From: Ruminococcus sp.
GTDB taxonomy: Bacteria > Bacillota > Clostridia > Lachnospirales > Lachnospiraceae
Reading direction: 5' to 3'
DNA length: 64,000 bases
NCBI GenBank assembly: GCA_050944415.1
Contig: JBMNRA010000003.1
Coordinates: 2,243 to 66,242 of the forward strand
The translations under genes and the position numbers were made by a program. This document shows positions 3,429-38,072 of this stretch, piece after piece. Position 1 is the first letter of the stretch. Each line of letters begins with the position of its first letter. The notes beneath the pieces were generated by a model. That model was not told the DNA's origin and searched no databases. It saw only the letters and a program-made list of their open reading frames with translations.

Positions 3429-3814
3429 GCACTATCCTCCTATATTCTGCCAGTTTTTCGTTACTTCTATTATACCCGTCAGACTGCAAAAATACAACAA
3501 ATATGAAGAGCCCTCCGCACACGGGGCGTGTGTACGGAGGGCTGCATATGACTATATTTTATATCCTTTTGATATCACACATGAATGTAAAATGGATCCA
3601 AACTGTAGACAGCTCCACATCACTCCTTTCTTTTGTTAACGTACAGATTTTACAGGCAGAAAAACCAGTACGTCAGGTTACCCTTTTTCTTTAGTTTCTT
3701 TTTTCTTTGTTTTTTGTCAACGAGTTACAGATATGCTCTCCTCCAAGAAGATCCGGTAATGCAGGCTTTGATTCAGTCTCCTCTTTGAGAACATGAAGTT
3801 ACATCAGGTTCCGG

Positions 3815-4312
3815 TCAGCTTATATATTTACCACCAGTTACTGTTGATGTACTCTCTTTTACGCTACCTTCCTTGGCAGCATGATAACCACGCAAACGAT
3901 ACCAATAGCCTTTTTGCACTGAATAATCAAATGATTTGTTTAGCTTCGCAGCATTACTAGCAGTATATTCCCAAGATCTATAAGAATAAAAATCTGTACC
4001 ATTTTTAGATTGTTCCAGATAAATATTAAGATATACCTTATCGCAAGTCTGAGTACATGTTGTTCCACCATATATGCCTATGCTACCATTTCCATGATTT
4101 GACAACGTTACTGTACCAACTGAAAGATATGCACCCCTCTGCAGAACTTGAGCAACAGCACTTATTTCTGTCTCCGTCTCAGTAATATAATGATATACGG
4201 GAACCTCAATCTCTGTTACATCAGTTGCCGCATATGTTTTTGATGAAAAGGCACATAACATTACAATTGCTACAATCAACAAACCTCCAAGTTTCTGCCA
4301 TCGCCCTGCCAT
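3815..4312 (-). CDS. Secreted protein (resembles DUF6147)
   Basis: Signal peptide ending TYAA; beta-rich mature part ending YRLRGYHAAK...T...GG..I; family name from recall. Confidence 0.65.
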   Translation of the reverse strand: MAGRWQKLGGLLIVAIVMLCAFSSKTYAATDVTEIEVPVYHYITETETEISAVAQVLQRGAYLSVGTVTLSNHGNGSIGIYGGTTCTQTCDKVYLNIYLEQSKNGTDFYSYRSWEYTASNAAKLNKSFDYSVQKGYWYRLRGYHAAKEGSVKESTSTVTGGKYIS

Positions 4313-29523: not shown

Positions 29524-30009
29524 TCAATACTGTATCCTCATATTTTTCTTTTCTTTCGCCCAGTTGCAGCGTGGTTCCGCTGGACATCCGAAACAGAGTC
29601 TGGACATCTTATCCGCTCTGTACATAAGTGTATTGAAATTTTCCCCCGCTTCTTTTCTCCGGTGGTTTAAAATAGCATCTGTAATAACCGAGATTTCCTC
29701 CGGGGAAAACCCACAGTCAGGAAGAATTTTCCCCGCAATCTCTGCGCTGGCTTTTTCATGGGGAATTCCCTGATCATACTGCAGTCTGCGCCCGATATCA
29801 TGAAGCAGCGCGGCTCCGTAGATCACATCTTTCGGTATGGAAAGTCCGGCTTCCAGCACATAAATGTAAGAAAGCCTGGCTACATCCAGAAAATGCTCTA
29901 CCGTATGCCGACAAAATTCTCTCCCCTGTTCCGCCTCCAGCAGATTTTTCAAATGTTCCTGATACAGGGGATGGTTCCAGATCCGGTTCACCCGGCTCAT
30001 ATCCTGCAT
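29524..30009 (-). CDS. HD-domain phosphohydrolase within the fol operon
   Basis: H...LLHDIG...H...D motif. Confidence 0.85.
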   Translation of the reverse strand: MQDMSRVNRIWNHPLYQEHLKNLLEAEQGREFCRHTVEHFLDVARLSYIYVLEAGLSIPKDVIYGAALLHDIGRRLQYDQGIPHEKASAEIAGKILPDCGFSPEEISVITDAILNHRRKEAGENFNTLMYRADKMSRLCFGCPAEPRCNWAKEKKNMRIQY

Positions 30010-30700: not shown

Positions 30701-30797
30701 TGCAACGGGTGCAGATTTCATATCGTAAGACGAACTTTTCGTTTCGGCGGCAACTCCCCATCCACTGAACACTTGACGCATAAAATCCTATTTTGCA
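30701..30797 (-). ncRNA. THF riboswitch (class I)
   Basis: Minus strand UGCAAAAUAGGAUUUUAUGCGUCAAGUG...GAUGGGGAGUUGCC...AACGAAA...AUGAAAUCUGCACCCGUUGCA: P1 UGCAA/UUGCA, P2 GGAUUUUAU/AUGAAAUCU, GGG/CCC pseudoknot; upstream of folE, followed by a hairpin and T7. Confidence 0.85.
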
Positions 30798-30806
30798 TAT
30801 TATCCT

Positions 30807-31598
30807 TCATCCACCACAATTATAGCACATAGTAACAAAAGCGCAAGGAGTATCTGAAGATTTCCTAAAGCAGCAGATTTCTGTACATTTTCTCTGCTTT
30901 TGGTAGAAAAATACGTTCCGTAAATTTTTTTCTCCCAGACTGGCCACCGGCATAATTCCCAGAAGTGAATTGGTAACAAAAGCTTCCTGAAAATTCTCTG
31001 TCTCTTCCGGACGGATAACTGTCTCACAAACTGAAAAATTTCTGATGATAAACGCTCTCACCGTTCCCGGAAGCAGTCCGCAGGAAACAGAGGGGGTATA
31101 GAGTCTGCCGTCTTTCACAAAAAAGATATTCGTCACAGCTCCTTCCGTAATCTCACCTCTGGTGTTTAAAAACAGCGGTTCATCCGCTCCTTCCCTTTTT
31201 GCTTTTCTCTTTTCCAGAATATTATCCCCATAGTTGAGAGTTTTCAGATAGGTAAGCGGAGAAGTTTCATTTCTTCTTACCTGGCTGAACGCAAGATGAA
31301 AACCTTTCTCGTAATCCGCCGGTTTATAAGGATTCTCGCGCTCTGAAAACAGAATGTTCTCACCGGTAACAATGATCTTGATCGCTCCCTGATCCATGGA
31401 TCTTTCTTTCATCCAATCATAGATTTTCTCCGGTGTCAGCCATCGGTTCACTTCTTCTCTTTCTATCCCCAGCCGTCGGATTCCATGACGCATTCTGCTG
31501 ATATGTTCCTTCAGAAGTATTGCTTTCCCCTGCTCTATCCTGATGGTCTCAAAGACTCCCAGTCCGAACGCCAGTCCCTCATCCATCTCCACTTTCAT
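30807..31598 (-). CDS. pabC: 4-amino-4-deoxychorismate lyase (class IV PLP enzyme); 3' end probably frameshifted
   Basis: FGLGVFET, KTLNY, EGAVTNIF, LLPGT, FVTNSLLGI; see finding at 30925. Confidence 0.85.
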   Translation of the reverse strand: MKVEMDEGLAFGLGVFETIRIEQGKAILLKEHISRMRHGIRRLGIEREEVNRWLTPEKIYDWMKERSMDQGAIKIIVTGENILFSERENPYKPADYEKGFHLAFSQVRRNETSPLTYLKTLNYGDNILEKRKAKREGADEPLFLNTRGEITEGAVTNIFFVKDGRLYTPSVSCGLLPGTVRAFIIRNFSVCETVIRPEETENFQEAFVTNSLLGIMPVASLGEKNLRNVFFYQKQRKCTEICCFRKSSDTPCAFVTMCYNCGG

Positions 31599-32952
31599 AA
31601 ACAGCCTCCCTTATCGCTTTTGCTTTCTGCAATGTTTCTTCATACTCGAATTCTGTATCTGACTCACAGGTGATTCCGCCGCCCACTCCCAGATGGTAGC
31701 ACCCGTTTTGATATACCGCCGTCCGTATCACAATATTCAAATCACAGGATCCATCCAGAGACAGATAGCCGATGGAGCCTGTATACAGTCCCCTCCGGCT
31801 GTGCTCCAGCTCATCAATGATTTCCATAGCTCTGATTTTAGGGGCACCTGTGATGGATCCCCCGGGAAACGTCGCTTTTATCAGATCCATCAGGGACACG
31901 TCCTTTCTCAGCCTTCCTCTGACGGTACTGACCAGATGAAAAACGGTGGCGTAGGTCTCCACTGCAAAATGTTCCGTCACTTCTACCGTACCCGGTTCAC
32001 AGACATGATTCAGATCGTTGCGTTCCAAATCCACAATCATCAGCAGTTCGCTTCTGTCTTTTTCGGACTCTGCCAGTTCCTGCCGCAGTCTCTCATCTTC
32101 CTGACGGTTTTCCCCCCGTTTTCTGGTTCCTTTCACCGGTCTGGTCTCCGCCCGCCCTTCTCTGACTTGGAGAAATCGCTCCGGTGAAGCACAGACAATC
32201 TGAAAATCGCCGTAATTCAGATAGGCGCCAAAAGGCGAGGGGTTATGCGTTCTCAGATAGCGAAAAACTTCATAGGGATCCTTCCTGCTGTCCATAAAAA
32301 GCCTCTGGGTCATGTTGGCTATATAAATATCTCCCGCACGGATATATTCCATCATATCCTCAATAGTTCTCTCATACTCATCTTTCTCAAAATCCGCCTG
32401 AAAAGCAGCAAGTTTTTCGTGTCGCACTGGAATGTAATCATCCGGTTTTCTGCTGCATCTTCTCGCCCATTCACTCAATTCCCTGCAGGAATTCTCAGGT
32501 GCGGTCTTTATTCCCCTTGCCGTTATATAAATTTCCTTTTTCAGACAGTCTTCTATTATCAGGTTATCATAAAAAGTAAACCAGGCCTCGGGCATCTCTA
32601 TTTTTTTCTGATGTCTGCCCGCAATATCTTCAAATTTTCTCCCGTAATCATAGGAAAAATATCCCAGGCCTCCCGCTGCCAGAGGAAGCGCTGTATCATT
32701 TTCCTCCCGGTTGTCTTTCAGATAACTATCCAGAACCTCCTCCATAGATTCTCTCACCGGCTTTCCGTTTTTAAAGCACTGCCCGTCCTGCTCCCAGATG
32801 GTCAGACAGGGATTCTTTCCCAGAATGGAATATCGTCCCTGATCCCCTCTTAAAGAAGAATCCAGAAATACAAAAAACTGCTCTTTTCGGCTGCTTTTCG
32901 CCAGTTTTTCCAGAGGCACATAAAAATCCAGTTTTCTAACCATAGTTTTCAT
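31579..32952 (-). CDS. pabB: Aminodeoxychorismate synthase component I
   Basis: SPERFL, PVKGT, MIVDLERNDL, TFPGGSITGAPK, LNIVIRT, GGGIT. Confidence 0.93.
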   Translation of the reverse strand: MKTMVRKLDFYVPLEKLAKSSRKEQFFVFLDSSLRGDQGRYSILGKNPCLTIWEQDGQCFKNGKPVRESMEEVLDSYLKDNREENDTALPLAAGGLGYFSYDYGRKFEDIAGRHQKKIEMPEAWFTFYDNLIIEDCLKKEIYITARGIKTAPENSCRELSEWARRCSRKPDDYIPVRHEKLAAFQADFEKDEYERTIEDMMEYIRAGDIYIANMTQRLFMDSRKDPYEVFRYLRTHNPSPFGAYLNYGDFQIVCASPERFLQVREGRAETRPVKGTRKRGENRQEDERLRQELAESEKDRSELLMIVDLERNDLNHVCEPGTVEVTEHFAVETYATVFHLVSTVRGRLRKDVSLMDLIKATFPGGSITGAPKIRAMEIIDELEHSRRGLYTGSIGYLSLDGSCDLNIVIRTAVYQNGCYHLGVGGGITCESDTEFEYEETLQKAKAIREAVYESGDG

Positions 32953-33547
32953 AGCTTTCCCACCATTTCTCACAGAGTCTGATATAATTTTCCAGCAGTT
33001 CATGACCGTATTGAGTCAGTACGGCTTCCGGATGAAACTGTACGCCGTAAACCGGCCAGAACCTATGGCTTAACGCCTGTATGCTGCCGTCTTTCGCCCA
33101 GGCATCCACCTGAAGGCTCTCCGGAAAATGTTTACTTTGCACAGTCAACGAATGGTACCTGGTCACTTGAAAAGAAAGGGGCAGACCTGCAAACAGTCCT
33201 TTCCCATTATGTGATATGGCAGTTACTTTGCCGTGCATGGGCCGTTCGCCCCGGGAAACTTCAGCCCCAAAAGCATGACCAATAATCTGATGCCCCAGAC
33301 ATACGCCCAAAATCGGAACTCTCCCCGCCAGACTCTGTACCAGTTTCCTGGATTTTCTGCAGTCTGCAGGGTTTCCCGGTCCCGGAGAGATGATAACTCC
33401 CTCCAGCCGTCCCTTCCGGCTGTCTTTCAAAAGTTCTTCCACAGACACCTGGTCGCTGCGGATCACTTCTGTCCTCTTTCCGATTTCTCTTATGTAAACT
33501 ACGAGGTTATACACAAAAGAATCGAAATGATCAATCACTACATACAT
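32936..33547 (-). CDS. pabA: Glutamine amidotransferase, ADC synthase component II
   Basis: IDHFDSFV, SPGPG, GVCLGHQ, RYHSL, QFHPE; SD GGAG before ATG 33547. Confidence 0.92.
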   Translation of the reverse strand: MYVVIDHFDSFVYNLVVYIREIGKRTEVIRSDQVSVEELLKDSRKGRLEGVIISPGPGNPADCRKSRKLVQSLAGRVPILGVCLGHQIIGHAFGAEVSRGERPMHGKVTAISHNGKGLFAGLPLSFQVTRYHSLTVQSKHFPESLQVDAWAKDGSIQALSHRFWPVYGVQFHPEAVLTQYGHELLENYIRLCEKWWESYENYG

Positions 33548-33565
33548 GATTTCTCCTTTCTCCCG

Positions 33566-33610
33566 AAAAAACAAAAACCGGAGACAGACACGAATCATGT
33601 CTGTCTCCGG
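33566..33610 (-). terminator. Strong terminator in the pabA 5' leader
   Basis: 13-bp perfect stem CCGGAGACAGACA/TGTCTGTCTCCGG plus TTTTTGTTTTTT, about 10 nt before the SD. Confidence 0.8.
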
Positions 33611-33662
33611 CAGTCTTCCGAAATTTTCCGGGCACACCGTACAGGTTTTCAATATTTGTTAG

Positions 33663-33691
33663 AGCATACCATAAACTTTTTCTGCTGTCCA
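33663..33691 (-). promoter_or_regulatory. Candidate pabA promoter
   Basis: TGGACA-17-TATGCT. Confidence 0.5.
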
Positions 33692-33698
33692 GTCTTTG

Positions 33699-34196
33699 TC
33701 ACAGATATTTTAAAACAACTTTGTAATCATTTACCAGTTTCTCAAAGGAAACCCTGCAATTGGCAGGACTGGTGGAAGGCAGTCGGAATGCTTCCATCTT
33801 CGTTTTTTCCTGGCAATATTTTTTATAAAGAGCAAAGGCTTTGGTTCCTGTTGCAAATACAGCCTGAATATCCGCCTGCTCCAATATGACGTTTATATCA
33901 TTAGGAACAGGATTCTGTATACTTCCATCATCCGCTCCGCAGATATCACAGCTTGCCAGCACATCCCAGACAGCAATTTTATGTTTCAGAGCAAAAGAAA
34001 TTTTCTCTTCTCTGGTCTGTGGACAGGGACTATTGAACACCCGGGCCAGAACCGGCCAGAACCGGTTTCTGGGATGACCGTAGTAAAAGCCGTTTTCCCT
34101 GGACTTGGGCGAAGGCATGGTACCCAGCATCAGTACTCGGGATTTTTCATCAAATACCGGTGAAAATTCATGATTCACTCTCTGAAGTTTCTGCAT
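33699..34196 (-). CDS. UDG-superfamily DNA-deoxyinosine (hypoxanthine) glycosylase
   Basis: LGTMPSPKS, YYGHPRNRFW, WDVL, LPSTSPAN; ATG 34196 overlaps the res 3' end. Confidence 0.85.
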   Translation of the reverse strand: MQKLQRVNHEFSPVFDEKSRVLMLGTMPSPKSRENGFYYGHPRNRFWPVLARVFNSPCPQTREEKISFALKHKIAVWDVLASCDICGADDGSIQNPVPNDINVILEQADIQAVFATGTKAFALYKKYCQEKTKMEAFRLPSTSPANCRVSFEKLVNDYKVVLKYL

Positions 34197-36411
34197 AAGC
34201 TTCTTCCACCACCTCTTCCAGCAAACGCCAGTGACTGCTTTCAATATCGTCACTGTACTTGTCCATACAGATACAGAGCTGCCTGCTTTTTTCATCCAGC
34301 CGGACAAAGCCTCCCTGAAGTCCGTGATCCTGCAGATATTTCTTCAGGACACCGAATTTTTTTCCGGAAAATATATCAATATCTTCGCTTTTTCCGTTTC
34401 GTTTAAATCCGCCTTTCGTCTCCAGAATCCAGATTTTTCCTCCGATGCCCACCAGATAATCCGGGTAAAAAGAATGCTGGTTCCGGCCATTGTCTTCATA
34501 CACAATAGCAAAATACTCTGCTCCCTGATCGCCGTTTTTATAGAACCACTGAATCTCATTTTTGTCTTCGCAGAACTTTTCCAGTTCTTTTTCCGAAGAA
34601 GACCGTATCTCCGCAGAAGCCAGATAGCCCCGGTAAACATTCTTTTTCATTTCCTTCTGCTTCTTGGCTTTGCTGTCATAGGTAAAAATGCAGGTTTCGG
34701 GAATAGTAAAATCCACCAGAGTCTTGGCATTAACTTTCATGATCTCCTGATCCAGCATGTCCGCCATAGCATGACGAATAGCATTTTTCAGCCGTCTTTC
34801 ATTATTCAGCACAAATCCGTATACTTCACGGGTGGTTAACATAAGAATCTTTTTCCTTCCGCGTACACTTCCGTCAAAAAGACTTCTGAGAATAGTATTC
34901 ATCTGCCGGTAAGACAGGCTGACCCGGCGGCCCAGTTCCGCCACCGTATGATGATAGGCCCGCCCGTGTTTGTGGGTATCCAGAGGCTCATCAATAGTAA
35001 TTATATTCAGCCCTTTTTTTCCGGCCTCCAGCACCTCATCCAGAGTTGCTACACGGCCGGAAATCGTATAATTCCGGATACTGTCTGTAAAAATATATCC
35101 GAAAGCCTCCAGACGTTTCTGATTTTCCATAGTGCGCGAATCAATGCCATATTCCTTTTCAAACCAGGCGTAAATGGACTGAAGAGCAGTTACATCATCT
35201 CTGGTTACCGGCACTGCCGTTTTCTGCTCACTTTTCAAAGTGATCCATTTATGTTCCGGTTTCAGATGCAGCGTCAGAGCATCCAGCGCATTTTTTCCCA
35301 GATGATTCCGGACACCTTCCGTAAACTTCTCGTCCAGAGTATACAGATAACAGCTGTCCAGCAGATCATTTTCGTAGTGGACCGCCTCCGGCATCCGCCG
35401 GATCCGCCCAATGGTCTGTATTTCAAAGGTTTCATTCATATTGTCCCGCAGTTTCACCAGAATATATGCCCTGGGGCAGTCCCAGCCCGTTGCCACCGCC
35501 TGCTTGATAATCACCGCATCCTGGCGTCCGTCCGCTTCCTCGATACCTTCCAGATTTTCCTTCCGGTCAGAAAGCCAGACCGCAAGGCGGCCATTCTCAT
35601 ATGTCAGTCCACGTGTCTCCAAAAAACCTTCCACTTCTCCCTGAAGATTTACCGATTTATTGGGTATCTGAATAATAATCAGGGGATTGATATCCTTTCC
35701 TTTCTTTAAAAAGGCCGCTCTTAAGCTCTGCTGCTTGCTTACCGCCTTTTCCAGCAAATAGGAAACCTGGCTGTCCACACTGATATTCTGGGCAAAATCT
35801 TCATTAATGATCAGAACCTTTTTAATCAGCCCTTCCGCAATCACCTCCGCTTCCGGAATCTCAATCAGCAGAGCGTTCTTTACATTCCTCGGGGTGGCGG
35901 AACATCGGATAATTTTGTCCGCGTGAAAATAACTGATGATATCCTCTGCCTTAATGGTATCATTCTGGTGACTTTCGTCTACGATTATTCGGAAAGTCAG
36001 CCCTTCGTCCAATGCATGCTGAATATGTTCCAGAAAATTGGTATGTTCCCCTTCCTTCAGCGCATTATTCCCCTTCTTCGTCAGTTTCTCCCAGTTGATA
36101 AAGCAGGCGTCATTTTCCTCAAAGCCTTCCGCCAGAACATCTGTCAGAAGTTTCGTCCGGCTGCCGTGCACGTACCGGTCCATTTTGGCTTTGCTTTGTT
36201 CTTCCAGATTTCCCCGGCCCGGCGTCAGCCAGACGAAAACCGTTCTCTCATATTCCCTGCAGTACTCATCCATGAACCTGGTCAGGATAATCGTCTTCCC
36301 GCTGCCGGTGCAGCTTTTTAACACAATGTCACGTTTTGCCGATCTCATGGCATCCATCAGCCTTCGAACGGCTTCCTTCTGAAATTCAGCCAGTCTGATC
36401 TGCATTCTCAT
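34168..36411 (-). CDS. res: Type III restriction endonuclease (Res): SF2 helicase plus PD-(D/E)xK nuclease
   Basis: TGSGKT, VDESH, TGWDCP, QTIGRIRR; C-terminal FYPDY...ILETKG. Confidence 0.85.
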   Translation of the reverse strand: MRMQIRLAEFQKEAVRRLMDAMRSAKRDIVLKSCTGSGKTIILTRFMDEYCREYERTVFVWLTPGRGNLEEQSKAKMDRYVHGSRTKLLTDVLAEGFEENDACFINWEKLTKKGNNALKEGEHTNFLEHIQHALDEGLTFRIIVDESHQNDTIKAEDIISYFHADKIIRCSATPRNVKNALLIEIPEAEVIAEGLIKKVLIINEDFAQNISVDSQVSYLLEKAVSKQQSLRAAFLKKGKDINPLIIIQIPNKSVNLQGEVEGFLETRGLTYENGRLAVWLSDRKENLEGIEEADGRQDAVIIKQAVATGWDCPRAYILVKLRDNMNETFEIQTIGRIRRMPEAVHYENDLLDSCYLYTLDEKFTEGVRNHLGKNALDALTLHLKPEHKWITLKSEQKTAVPVTRDDVTALQSIYAWFEKEYGIDSRTMENQKRLEAFGYIFTDSIRNYTISGRVATLDEVLEAGKKGLNIITIDEPLDTHKHGRAYHHTVAELGRRVSLSYRQMNTILRSLFDGSVRGRKKILMLTTREVYGFVLNNERRLKNAIRHAMADMLDQEIMKVNAKTLVDFTIPETCIFTYDSKAKKQKEMKKNVYRGYLASAEIRSSSEKELEKFCEDKNEIQWFYKNGDQGAEYFAIVYEDNGRNQHSFYPDYLVGIGGKIWILETKGGFKRNGKSEDIDIFSGKKFGVLKKYLQDHGLQGGFVRLDEKSRQLCICMDKYSDDIESSHWRLLEEVVEEAYAETSESES

Positions 36412-38072
36412 CCCTCCAGTTCACTGTAGTAATACTCCGGCACTGTGCGTATCTCCAGTCCCTTCTCCTCAATTAAAGCCTCCTGGGCGGCCGACAGCAG
36501 AATATCACATCCCAGATAGACCACCCGGCAGGTGCTGGGGCATTGCTCCCATGTCAGTTTATGATCCGCTTCCTCCTGATCCGTAAGAAGCAGTACCTGC
36601 TTATTTCTTTCCAGATACTGTCCCCATTCCAGCTGAATCAGTTCCTGTATGTGCTCACACAGCTCATCGGCATATTCGTAATACATTCTGCCCTCTGTCT
36701 GCAGATAATTCACTTTAAGATAGGACAATGAACCCCGGTACTCCTCCCGCTCCATCACCCGTTTCAGCCGCTCATAGGCAATTTCCCTGCAGACGCCTCC
36801 CTGATTGTCAGTACAGAGGATAAACTTCCTGTTTCCGCCGTCAGCTTTATTCTGTTTCATTACCGCATGACCGGTGGTTCCTGAACCCGCAAAAAAGTCC
36901 AGAACGGTAATATCTTTATCCCGGTTAATCATATTGATCAGAAAAATATAAAGAGATGTGGGCTTGGGATAATCAAAGGGCGGAAGATCAAGAGCTCTTA
37001 ATTCCTTTTCCGCCTCCTCATTGGTTCCCGCACCCAGCTCCCCGTTCAGCAGGTTCTGAGGCGTTTTATGAACCATTTTCCCCGTTCTCTGATAACGGAT
37101 GGAGAATTGTTTGGATTTGATCAGAAAGTACGTTCCCTCCTCAATCTCTCTGTCCAGTGTTTCCTGTATCCATTTGTATTCCCCTGTTGCCACCAGTGGA
37201 GTTATGTTAACACCATCTTTTACCTTCACCGGCTGCTCCAGCTGAATTTTCCTGCTGTCATCCGGCCTGTAAATGCCGTCCTTAATCCGAAACCGTACGC
37301 TCCCCGGCGGAAAAGTCAGAGTTTTTCTTCCATTTCCCTTATTCAGAAGGGGCGCATCGTCACCATCTATACTTCCCTGCGAAAACTGATGGGAGGAATC
37401 CAGAACTTTCCCATAACAGAGAATATACTCCAGTTTCTTCCTTACTTTTTTGGAAAGCGCCGGCGCTGTGGATGTTTTCTCCCACATATACATGCCCACA
37501 AAATTCTGCTCACGGAATACTTCGTCACAGATCATTTTCAATGTGGTCAGCTCATTGTCATCAATATTGATGAAAATATAACCTTCCGGCTTCAGCAGCT
37601 TTCTGGCCAGCCGCAGACGGGAATACATGAAGGAAGCCCATTTGCTGTGATGAAAGGTATCATTGGCATCCACATAATCATCGTCATAGATAAAATCATT
37701 CTTTCCCCGGTTATAAGGAGGATCGATGATGCACAGATCAATTTTTTCCCTGTGAGTCTTCAAAAGCAGCTGCAGAGAAGCCAGATTATCCCCTTCAATC
37801 AGATAGTTGCAGGGTCCTTCTCCTTCAATGCGCAGTTCTTTTTCTTCCTCAAGCCAGGGCAGATGAGTATCCAGAAGATCCTGTATTTTTTCCCTGTGTT
37901 TTTCAAAAACCAGGCCGAATTTTTTCCCCTTCAGCGTTTTTTCAATATCGTTTAAAAAGGACAGGAGCTCTCCGGTTTTCTCTCCCTCATCCTCCGACGC
38001 AATATGTTTTCTCAGATATTCCAGCATTCTCAACTGCTGTTCTCTTTTCTCTCTGGAAATATTGACGGACAT
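36408..38072 (-). CDS. mod: Type III DNA adenine methyltransferase (Mod, beta class)
   Basis: IEGDNL, DPPY catalytic motif, YPKP, LDFFAGSGTT; 4-nt overlap with res. Confidence 0.88.
   Translation of the reverse strand: MSVNISREKREQQLRMLEYLRKHIASEDEGEKTGELLSFLNDIEKTLKGKKFGLVFEKHREKIQDLLDTHLPWLEEEKELRIEGEGPCNYLIEGDNLASLQLLLKTHREKIDLCIIDPPYNRGKNDFIYDDDYVDANDTFHHSKWASFMYSRLRLARKLLKPEGYIFINIDDNELTTLKMICDEVFREQNFVGMYMWEKTSTAPALSKKVRKKLEYILCYGKVLDSSHQFSQGSIDGDDAPLLNKGNGRKTLTFPPGSVRFRIKDGIYRPDDSRKIQLEQPVKVKDGVNITPLVATGEYKWIQETLDREIEEGTYFLIKSKQFSIRYQRTGKMVHKTPQNLLNGELGAGTNEEAEKELRALDLPPFDYPKPTSLYIFLINMINRDKDITVLDFFAGSGTTGHAVMKQNKADGGNRKFILCTDNQGGVCREIAYERLKRVMEREEYRGSLSYLKVNYLQTEGRMYYEYADELCEHIQELIQLEWGQYLERNKQVLLLTDQEEADHKLTWEQCPSTCRVVYLGCDILLSAAQEALIEEKGLEIRTVPEYYYSELEG

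Follow-up and report, generated by a model that had tools for sequence, protein, structure and literature searches.

The window (the whole 64-kb stretch of Ruminococcus sp. DNA analysed here) carries the two branches of dihydropteroate synthesis in one cluster, and that cluster holds two different RNA elements, a THF-I riboswitch and the pabA leader described in this report. The features, listed in order of coordinate, are as follows.

29524-30009, minus strand: HD-domain gene, between folE and folP
30701-30797, minus strand: THF-I riboswitch (RF01831, 79.8 bits), between pabC and folE-HD-folP-folB/K
30807-33547, minus strand: regulated operon pabA-pabB-pabC (Pfam scan), its order kept in almost all motif loci
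30807-31598, minus strand: pabC, Pfam Aminotran_4 (class IV aminotransferase fold)
31579-33003, minus strand: pabB, Pfam Chorismate_bind
32936-33547, minus strand: pabA, Pfam GATase
33545-33558, minus strand: Shine-Dalgarno (SD) sequence AAGGAG (33558-33553) and pabA ATG (33547-33545)
33566-33577, minus strand: U tract UUUUUGUUUUUU, directly after the terminator
33577-33611, minus strand: intrinsic terminator hairpin, GCCGGAGACAGACAUG paired with CGUGUCUGUCUCCGGU
33609-33617, minus strand: 3' conserved block AAGACUGCC (A61-C69), its R63 covarying with Y16; its UGCC would form the 3' strand of P1, and GCC (33611-33609) doubles as the terminator base
33618-33631, minus strand: P2 hairpin CCGGA-AAAU-UUCGG, its closing pair C17-G60 invariant and the remainder varying in sequence and length
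33632-33638, minus strand: 5' conserved block GGUGUG plus Y16 (C in the window), the proposed 5' strand of P1; GGUGUG is invariant in 46 of 46 aligned leaders
33639-33656, minus strand: short A-rich 5' leader, from the putative transcription start (placed by the promoter) to the core
33663-33691, minus strand: promoter, with -35 TGGACA (33691-33686), a 17-nt spacer, and TG-extended -10 TATGCT (33668-33663), a 9/12 match
33699-34307, minus strand: UDG-superfamily gene
34168-36411 and 36408-38072, minus strand: type III restriction-modification pair, Res (Pfam ResIII) and Mod (Pfam N6_N4_Mtase), upstream of the UDG-superfamily gene and in the same direction

Downstream of the THF-I copy lie, in order, folE, the HD-domain gene, folP, and a folB-folK fusion, so the pterin branch is under a known switch of its own. 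The HD-domain gene, which has the same place in loci L076 and L113, is a candidate that may supply the dihydroneopterin-triphosphate pyrophosphatase step. Across the loci described below, the operon linked to the leader motif consists of pabA-pabB-pabC and nothing else; the window's genus is the only one in which the pterin-branch genes adjoin it, and there they are under a separate THF-I switch. On the upstream side, the UDG-superfamily gene stops 8 nt short of the pab promoter and has no terminator of its own, so that any read-through from upstream would also meet the leader terminator.

A preliminary description of this DNA had proposed a promoter, a small hairpin, and a terminator with a U tract just before the SD sequence in the pabA leader, and all of these are present. 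The promoter, TGGACA-17-TGgTATGCT, is the top promoter-like site near pabA in promoter scoring (9/12, TG present). GGUGUG begins about 18 nt 3' of the transcription start that it predicts; the A/U-rich 5' leader in between is weakly conserved, with A preferred at positions -1, -2, -4, and -6 relative to the core. The hairpin is the CCGGA/UUCGG stem of P2. The terminator has 16 pairs, including a closing G.U pair and two GC pairs, where 13 had been counted earlier. The U tract ends about 5 nt before the purine-rich SD region, which leaves no room for a promoter, as had also been pointed out. The 5' pairing partner had been given as CGGU; a conserved 5' partner does exist, but it is GGUGUG (33638-33633), and the preceding C is variable. 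The window's leader folds at -43.6 kcal/mol (z = -4.9; 0 of 200 shuffles equally good), and the core pattern GGTGTGYC-N(6-36)-GAARACTGCC matches once in the 64-kb window, where 100 shuffles give an expectation of 0.

Does the leader belong to a known RNA family? The earlier impression that it is not a THF-I, ZTP, or preQ1 riboswitch agrees with Rfam 15, which gives nothing credible for the pabA leader in the window or in 11 other loci. The window and 6 loci were searched with the gathering score as cutoff, and the leader and 5 further loci by E value; the E-value searches returned only noise (RgsA, a snoRNA, an miRNA, and preQ1-II). The preQ1-II match on the leader is spurious, scoring 15.5 bits where the gathering score is 47 (E = 7.3). 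THF-I (gathering score, 36 bits) has no match on 33450-33800 even at E values up to 10, the true copy at 30701-30797 serving as the positive control with its 79.8 bits. THF-II likewise has no cmscan match at E values up to 10 on the leader and up to 1 on five other loci, and ZTP, preQ1-I, preQ1-II, and preQ1-III yield none at the gathering score in the window and 6 other loci. Full-text literature searches and three Breaker-lab motif catalogues turned up no RNA associated with pabA or pabB.

The leader is far from private to this genome. At least 48 instances were collected, from Lachnospiraceae, another family of its order, Hornefia, and a few Coriobacteriaceae, and they share a core made of an invariant GGUGUG-Y-C, a variable, covarying hairpin (P2), and an invariant G-AARACUGCC. 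Within the genus, the core is present at the PabA orthologues in each of six other species (proteins 54 to 76% identical). A covariance model built from the genus leaders (R1) was run on 400 genera of the family, one genome each (401 with the window's), and picked up true copies in eight more genera (L033-L038, L040, and L041), each followed by pabA-pabB where the sequence extends; L033 stops at a contig edge. A second model (R2) added two copies from another family of the order (L061 and L062). Finally, an exact-pattern scan of about 185,000 species genomes matched at least 80 loci which, after rejections, gave at least 33 further instances before pab genes or their remnants; two of these, L093 and L142, are loci already found by covariance model. 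Named records with the element among the matches listed are Blautia celeris, B. producta, B. hominis, Anaerostipes, Cuneatibacter, Muricoprocola, Oliverpabstia, Choladocola, "Ca. Ruminococcus avistercoris," Hornefia butyriciproducens (Anaerovoracaceae), Collinsella, and other Coriobacteriaceae. The closest named leader among them, from a "Ca. Ruminococcus avistercoris" metagenome-assembled genome (MAG) (L076), is nearly identical to the window's. The element is nonetheless rare, occurring in about 2 to 3% of the family's genera and in 2 of 201 Coriobacteriaceae genomes, with one copy per genome; model R2, in a search that had no positive control, did not find it in 201 genomes of Desulfobacterota. 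E values of these home-built models are rough.

Several kinds of match had to be set aside. Covariance-model matches below about 40 bits (L039, L042-L060, and L063-L067) are ordinary terminators that have neither the core nor pab genes, and about 32 of the 80 pattern matches listed are not the motif but chance or coding matches, including chance ones in high-GC genomes. At least 10 of these false matches, in many phyla, come from the coding sequence of a DNA polymerase I 5'-nuclease motif, DNIPGVPGIGEKTA (DN-IPGVPG-GEKTA), which is thus a trap for pattern searches; the loci are L068, L074, L088, L094, L101, L102, L118, L119, L127, L141, and L143. The match in Desulfosporosinus (L087) has no downstream gene. 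The "pabA-like" matches L010-L029 are trpG preceded by trpE rather than pabA.

The association with the operon is tight, in that 46 of the 48 instances precede pabA-pabB-pabC or a remnant of it. L076 lacks pabA and the 5' portion of pabB (3455-4200); by tblastn, similarity to pabB resumes about 30 nt after the core, and pabC, folE, HD, folP, and folBK are intact. The gap looks like a deletion or an assembly artefact. Orphan copies consisting of promoter, core, and terminator, with no pab genes downstream, occur in Blautia producta DSM 2950 (L106, 2688-2763) and B. hominis (L070). They sit just after a DUF5692 gene, and about 150 nt beyond them, past another promoter-like site, are genes for a GDSL lipase, a YhcH/DUF386 protein, and an AraC regulator; the copies could be relics or stand-alone small transcripts. 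Conversely, two relatives (L008 and L009) have pabA-pabB with no leader, pabA there lying directly after another gene.

Could the hairpin simply end the transcript of the upstream restriction-modification genes, with no conservation of the leader, as the preliminary description had allowed? The core occurs in six other species of the genus, at least eight other genera, and a second family. Most leaders have their own promoter, T(A/G)GACA-17/18-TGnTAnAAT, whose -10 element ends 15 to 26 nt before GGUGUG. By a crude estimate from stop-to-stop open reading frames, the nearest upstream gene is divergent in about one-third of the loci; L113, with folE-HD-folP upstream on the opposite strand, is a firm case. 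Conservation beyond the genus, promoters of their own, and divergent upstream genes together argue that the leader is not merely the terminator of an upstream transcript. On the comparative evidence, the element is genuine and conserved, a cis-regulatory RNA that is apparently new to the literature and is predicted to control pabABC through its terminator.

What does conservation say about the structure of the core? The PabA proteins of the motif loci are merely 47 to 76% identical, yet all 46 aligned leaders agree at about 15 core nucleotides. The invariant positions are G10, G11, U12, G13, U14, G15, C17, G60, A61, A62, A64, C65, U66, G67, C68, and C69; this invariance is partly by construction for 29 of the 46 aligned instances (31 of 48 overall), which were found by a pattern with these nucleotides fixed, while the 17 found by covariance models, which need no exact matches, provide an independent basis for it. 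Between the two blocks, P2 runs from C17-G60 for 3 to more than 8 pairs, with inserted subhairpins in some leaders (L034 and L041). Covariation among pabA leaders, a check that had been suggested at the outset, was scored in the 46-instance alignment against 500 shuffles and slid-partner controls. It is seen in 4 of the 5 modelled P2 pairs (pair 18-59, for example, is CG in 33 sequences and UA in 13) and in all 13 modelled terminator pairs; 0 of the 500 shuffles reached the observed score, and the slid-partner controls collapse.

Two positions within the conserved blocks vary, and they vary together. Y16 is C in 38 and U in 8 of the 46 aligned leaders, R63 is G in 37 and A in 9, and the combinations are CG in 35, UA in 6, UG in 2, and CA in 3 (Fisher P = 2e-4). 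The UA state needs five changes on the PabA tree, of which well-supported branches force at least two, so the covariation does not reflect one inherited event. The alignment thus indicates that Y16 and R63 pair and that this pair fixes the register of a continuous rod. Below it we infer the P1 pairing of GGUG with UGCC, with 4 to 5 pairs that include G.U wobbles (G10-C69, G11-C68, U12.G67, and G13.U66). RNAfold offers an alternative register in which GGUGU pairs with ACUGCC through G13-C65 and U14-A64 and U66 is bulged. Since all P1 positions are invariant, covariation neither supports nor refutes this helix.

The conserved 3' block has a second use. The 5' arm of the terminator starts within it in almost all of the 48 leaders, which fall largely into two groups. 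In about 26, the whole of GAAGACUGCC is paired with GGCAGUCUU, which is followed by Us; in about 17, including the window's, the terminator shares just the (U)GCC of the block. The 3' arm of the terminator has wobble variants (GGCGGUCUU, GGUGGUCUU, and GGUAGUCUU), but the 5' block never varies, and AAGAC in the (U)GCC group is invariant although the terminator fold leaves it unpaired. Both observations indicate that the block is constrained by more than pairing within the stem. The sensor alone is weak, with a mean of -6.3 kcal/mol and P1 present in the minimum-free-energy fold of 12 of the 48 leaders; the terminators range from -13 to -45 kcal/mol, most being -20 or stronger. This difference in stability makes termination the likely default state. 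Nothing conserved other than the 5' block competes for the 5' arm of the terminator, and no separate antiterminator is present. Where the entire 3' block lies within the terminator stem (the group of about 26), a folded sensor and the terminator cannot coexist. In the window's group the overlap with P1 is just 3 to 4 nt, so the case for ON polarity rests largely on the other group.

One leader departs from this plan. L099, from a Coriobacteriaceae MAG, is the sole leader of the 48 with a poor U tract. There GGCACACC, located some 48 to 56 nt after the core and a few nucleotides before the SD sequence, is a perfect 8-nt complement of GGUGUGCC, and L099 may have a variant expression platform. 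A translational platform of this kind is not general, however, since L099 is the only one of the 48 leaders with a CACACC (the complement of GGUGUG) near the ribosome binding site.

How might so small an RNA control the operon? The sensor, 26 to 54 nt across leaders and 30 nt in the window (33638-33609), would consist, in order, of P1; the invariant nucleotides U14 and G15 opposite A64 and C65, unpaired or in non-canonical contact; the Y16-R63 pair; the A61-A62 bulge; and the variable P2. Its 3' strand would double as the 5' arm of the terminator. The far more stable terminator would form by default, and transcription would halt after about 90 nt. A ligand, most likely a small metabolite, would lock the sensor fold; with GGUG held on UGCC, the base of the terminator beside the U tract could not form, and RNA polymerase would read into pabABC, turning the operon on. 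We put the probability at roughly 0.6 that the leader is such a compact, ligand-stabilised antiterminator, that is, a transcriptional ON riboswitch whose aptamer is partly embedded in its terminator. Ligand sensing, ON polarity, and the identity of the ligand are all matters that we infer. What the leaders offer toward this reading is a structured core with covariation in P2 and Y16-R63 (P1 being invariant), association with the genes of one pathway, and a putative aptamer and expression platform made mutually exclusive by the shared 3' block in almost all leaders.

What else could account for an RNA of this design? A protein-binding site could also have fifteen invariant nucleotides around a hairpin whose sequence is free. 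A protein or other trans-acting factor might bind the invariant single-stranded blocks flanking P2 and keep the 3' block off the terminator, as in antiterminators of the RAT/BglG, PyrR, and TRAP types, and the weakness of P1 on its own, together with the lack of a known ligand, speaks for such a partner. To our knowledge, the core is unlike RAT, PyrR, TRAP, or ANTAR sites. Moreover, no regulator gene is conserved beside the operon, the upstream genes varying from locus to locus, and the distribution of the element poses a further difficulty. The PabA proteins of Coriobacteriaceae and Hornefia nest inside those of Lachnospiraceae on the PabA tree; with the sporadic occurrence of the element, this nesting suggests that leader and operon move together between phyla. 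A self-contained RNA sensor fits such transfer better than a protein-dependent one, which would demand a universal or co-transferred partner in distant phyla. We therefore regard a factor-dependent antiterminator as unlikely, if worth keeping in mind. A leader peptide with ribosome-mediated attenuation can be set aside, since 25 of the 48 leaders have no ATG-initiated open reading frame of at least 8 codons and the frames in the others lie in three different registers relative to the core.

Might the RNA instead be an OFF switch, in which an end product (pABA, dihydropteroate, or folate) favours the terminator? End-product repression is the commonest logic of biosynthetic operons, and a short GGU/ACU pairing can coexist with the full terminator in the window's group. 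Such a switch would nevertheless have to work with no separate antiterminator, the 5' block being the sole conserved competitor for the terminator 5' arm, and in the roughly 26 leaders that hold the entire 3' block in the terminator stem the coexistence of sensor and terminator is impossible. In the window's genus, furthermore, the pterin genes are already under the THF-I OFF switch and the pab genes are not. An OFF riboswitch for an end product thus seems improbable. The leader might also sense nothing at all, being a constitutively leaky attenuator that sets low pab expression or the source of a terminated transcript of about 90 nt that acts in trans as a small RNA. The orphan copies of B. 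producta and B. hominis, which retain promoter, core, and terminator but no pab genes, could be explained by a stand-alone small transcript. A plain terminator, though, needs no invariant 5' block 20 to 45 nt upstream, nor an invariant, unpaired AAGAC, nor covariation between Y16 and R63, and the element lies directly before pabA in 46 of 48 instances, all of which makes an absence of sensing quite improbable. The pabA leader is, then, most likely a new and very compact class of ON riboswitch.

Which ligand would suit such an ON riboswitch? Control of genes of the pABA branch only, combined with ON logic, favours a signal of pABA demand. Our speculative favourite, chosen by analogy, is 6-hydroxymethyl-7,8-dihydropterin or its pyrophosphate, the co-substrate of dihydropteroate synthase; chorismate is a second candidate. 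The earlier proposal of a compact, undescribed switch holds up, in that the element is conserved and has no Rfam family, but the pABA and folate ligands that it named become less likely with an ON architecture: the same logic and the control of the pABA branch make the end products improbable ligands. Taken as a whole, the following proposition is doubtful: that this is the first riboswitch class of the pABA branch, with a sensor some 30 nt long that lies in part within its terminator and switches pabABC on by binding the pterin co-substrate. If it were true, the two converging branches of folate synthesis would be kept in balance, and in this genus the leader and the THF-I switch on folE-folP-folBK would act as a cascade.

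The element has interest beyond the choice of ligand. The pABA branch feeds the target of sulfonamide drugs, and we know of no RNA switch for this branch of folate synthesis. A ligand-sensing core of such small size is unusual, and the pabA leader, in which about 15 invariant nucleotides flank a free hairpin, is among the smallest riboswitch candidates. Its hosts are abundant commensals of the human gut (Blautia, Anaerostipes, and relatives of Collinsella), a setting in which cross-feeding of B vitamins matters, and the element is probably a new metabolite-sensing gene switch of gut bacteria.

How does the pabA leader compare with known switches? The ZTP, fluoride, and adenine (pbuE) riboswitches are small transcriptional ON riboswitches with an overlap of a few nucleotides between aptamer and terminator. 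The kinetic scheme proposed for the pabA leader is the same, a ligand-stabilised helix taking the 5' nucleotides of the terminator stem, although neither fold nor consensus sequence is related and Rfam gives no match. THF-I shares with the pabA leader both the pathway and the gene cluster, its copy lying 2.8 kb downstream, but is unlike it in being an OFF switch of about 100 nt with a three-way junction and a pseudoknot. The THF-II riboswitch (folE motif, RF02977) is confined to Rhizobiales, where it lies upstream of folE and acts as a translational OFF switch that has the ribosome binding site in P1 and recognises the pterin moiety (Chen et al. 2019, PMC6800512). It resembles the pabA leader in its pathway and in being a simple P1-bulge-P2 rod of about 50 nt with conserved junction nucleotides; the pabA leader differs in sequence, in its place upstream of pabA, in its terminator platform, and in its hosts, Lachnospiraceae and Coriobacteriaceae.

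The closest parallel in architecture and regulatory logic is the HMP-PP riboswitch (thiS motif), a tiny sensor whose nucleotides are largely embedded in an intrinsic terminator (Atilho et al. 2019, PMC6478431). Transcription terminates by default; in the ON state, upstream nucleotides take part in a P1 helix that breaks up the stem close to the U run. The switch turns on one arm of a convergent vitamin pathway when the product of the other arm builds up (PMC6478431). The pabA leader is not a member of this class. It has no sequence or covariance-model similarity to it and no Rfam match, its variable P2 precedes the terminator and does not form its tip, its terminator loop is unconserved where the thiS motif has conserved loop and pseudoknot nucleotides, and the genes that it precedes are pabABC instead of thiS/HET-P. 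What the two have in common is very small size, a terminator-embedded sensor, default termination, and, as proposed for the pabA leader, an ON state driven by P1. Should the pterin co-substrate prove to be the ligand, the pabA leader would be the folate counterpart of the HMP-PP/thiS switch.
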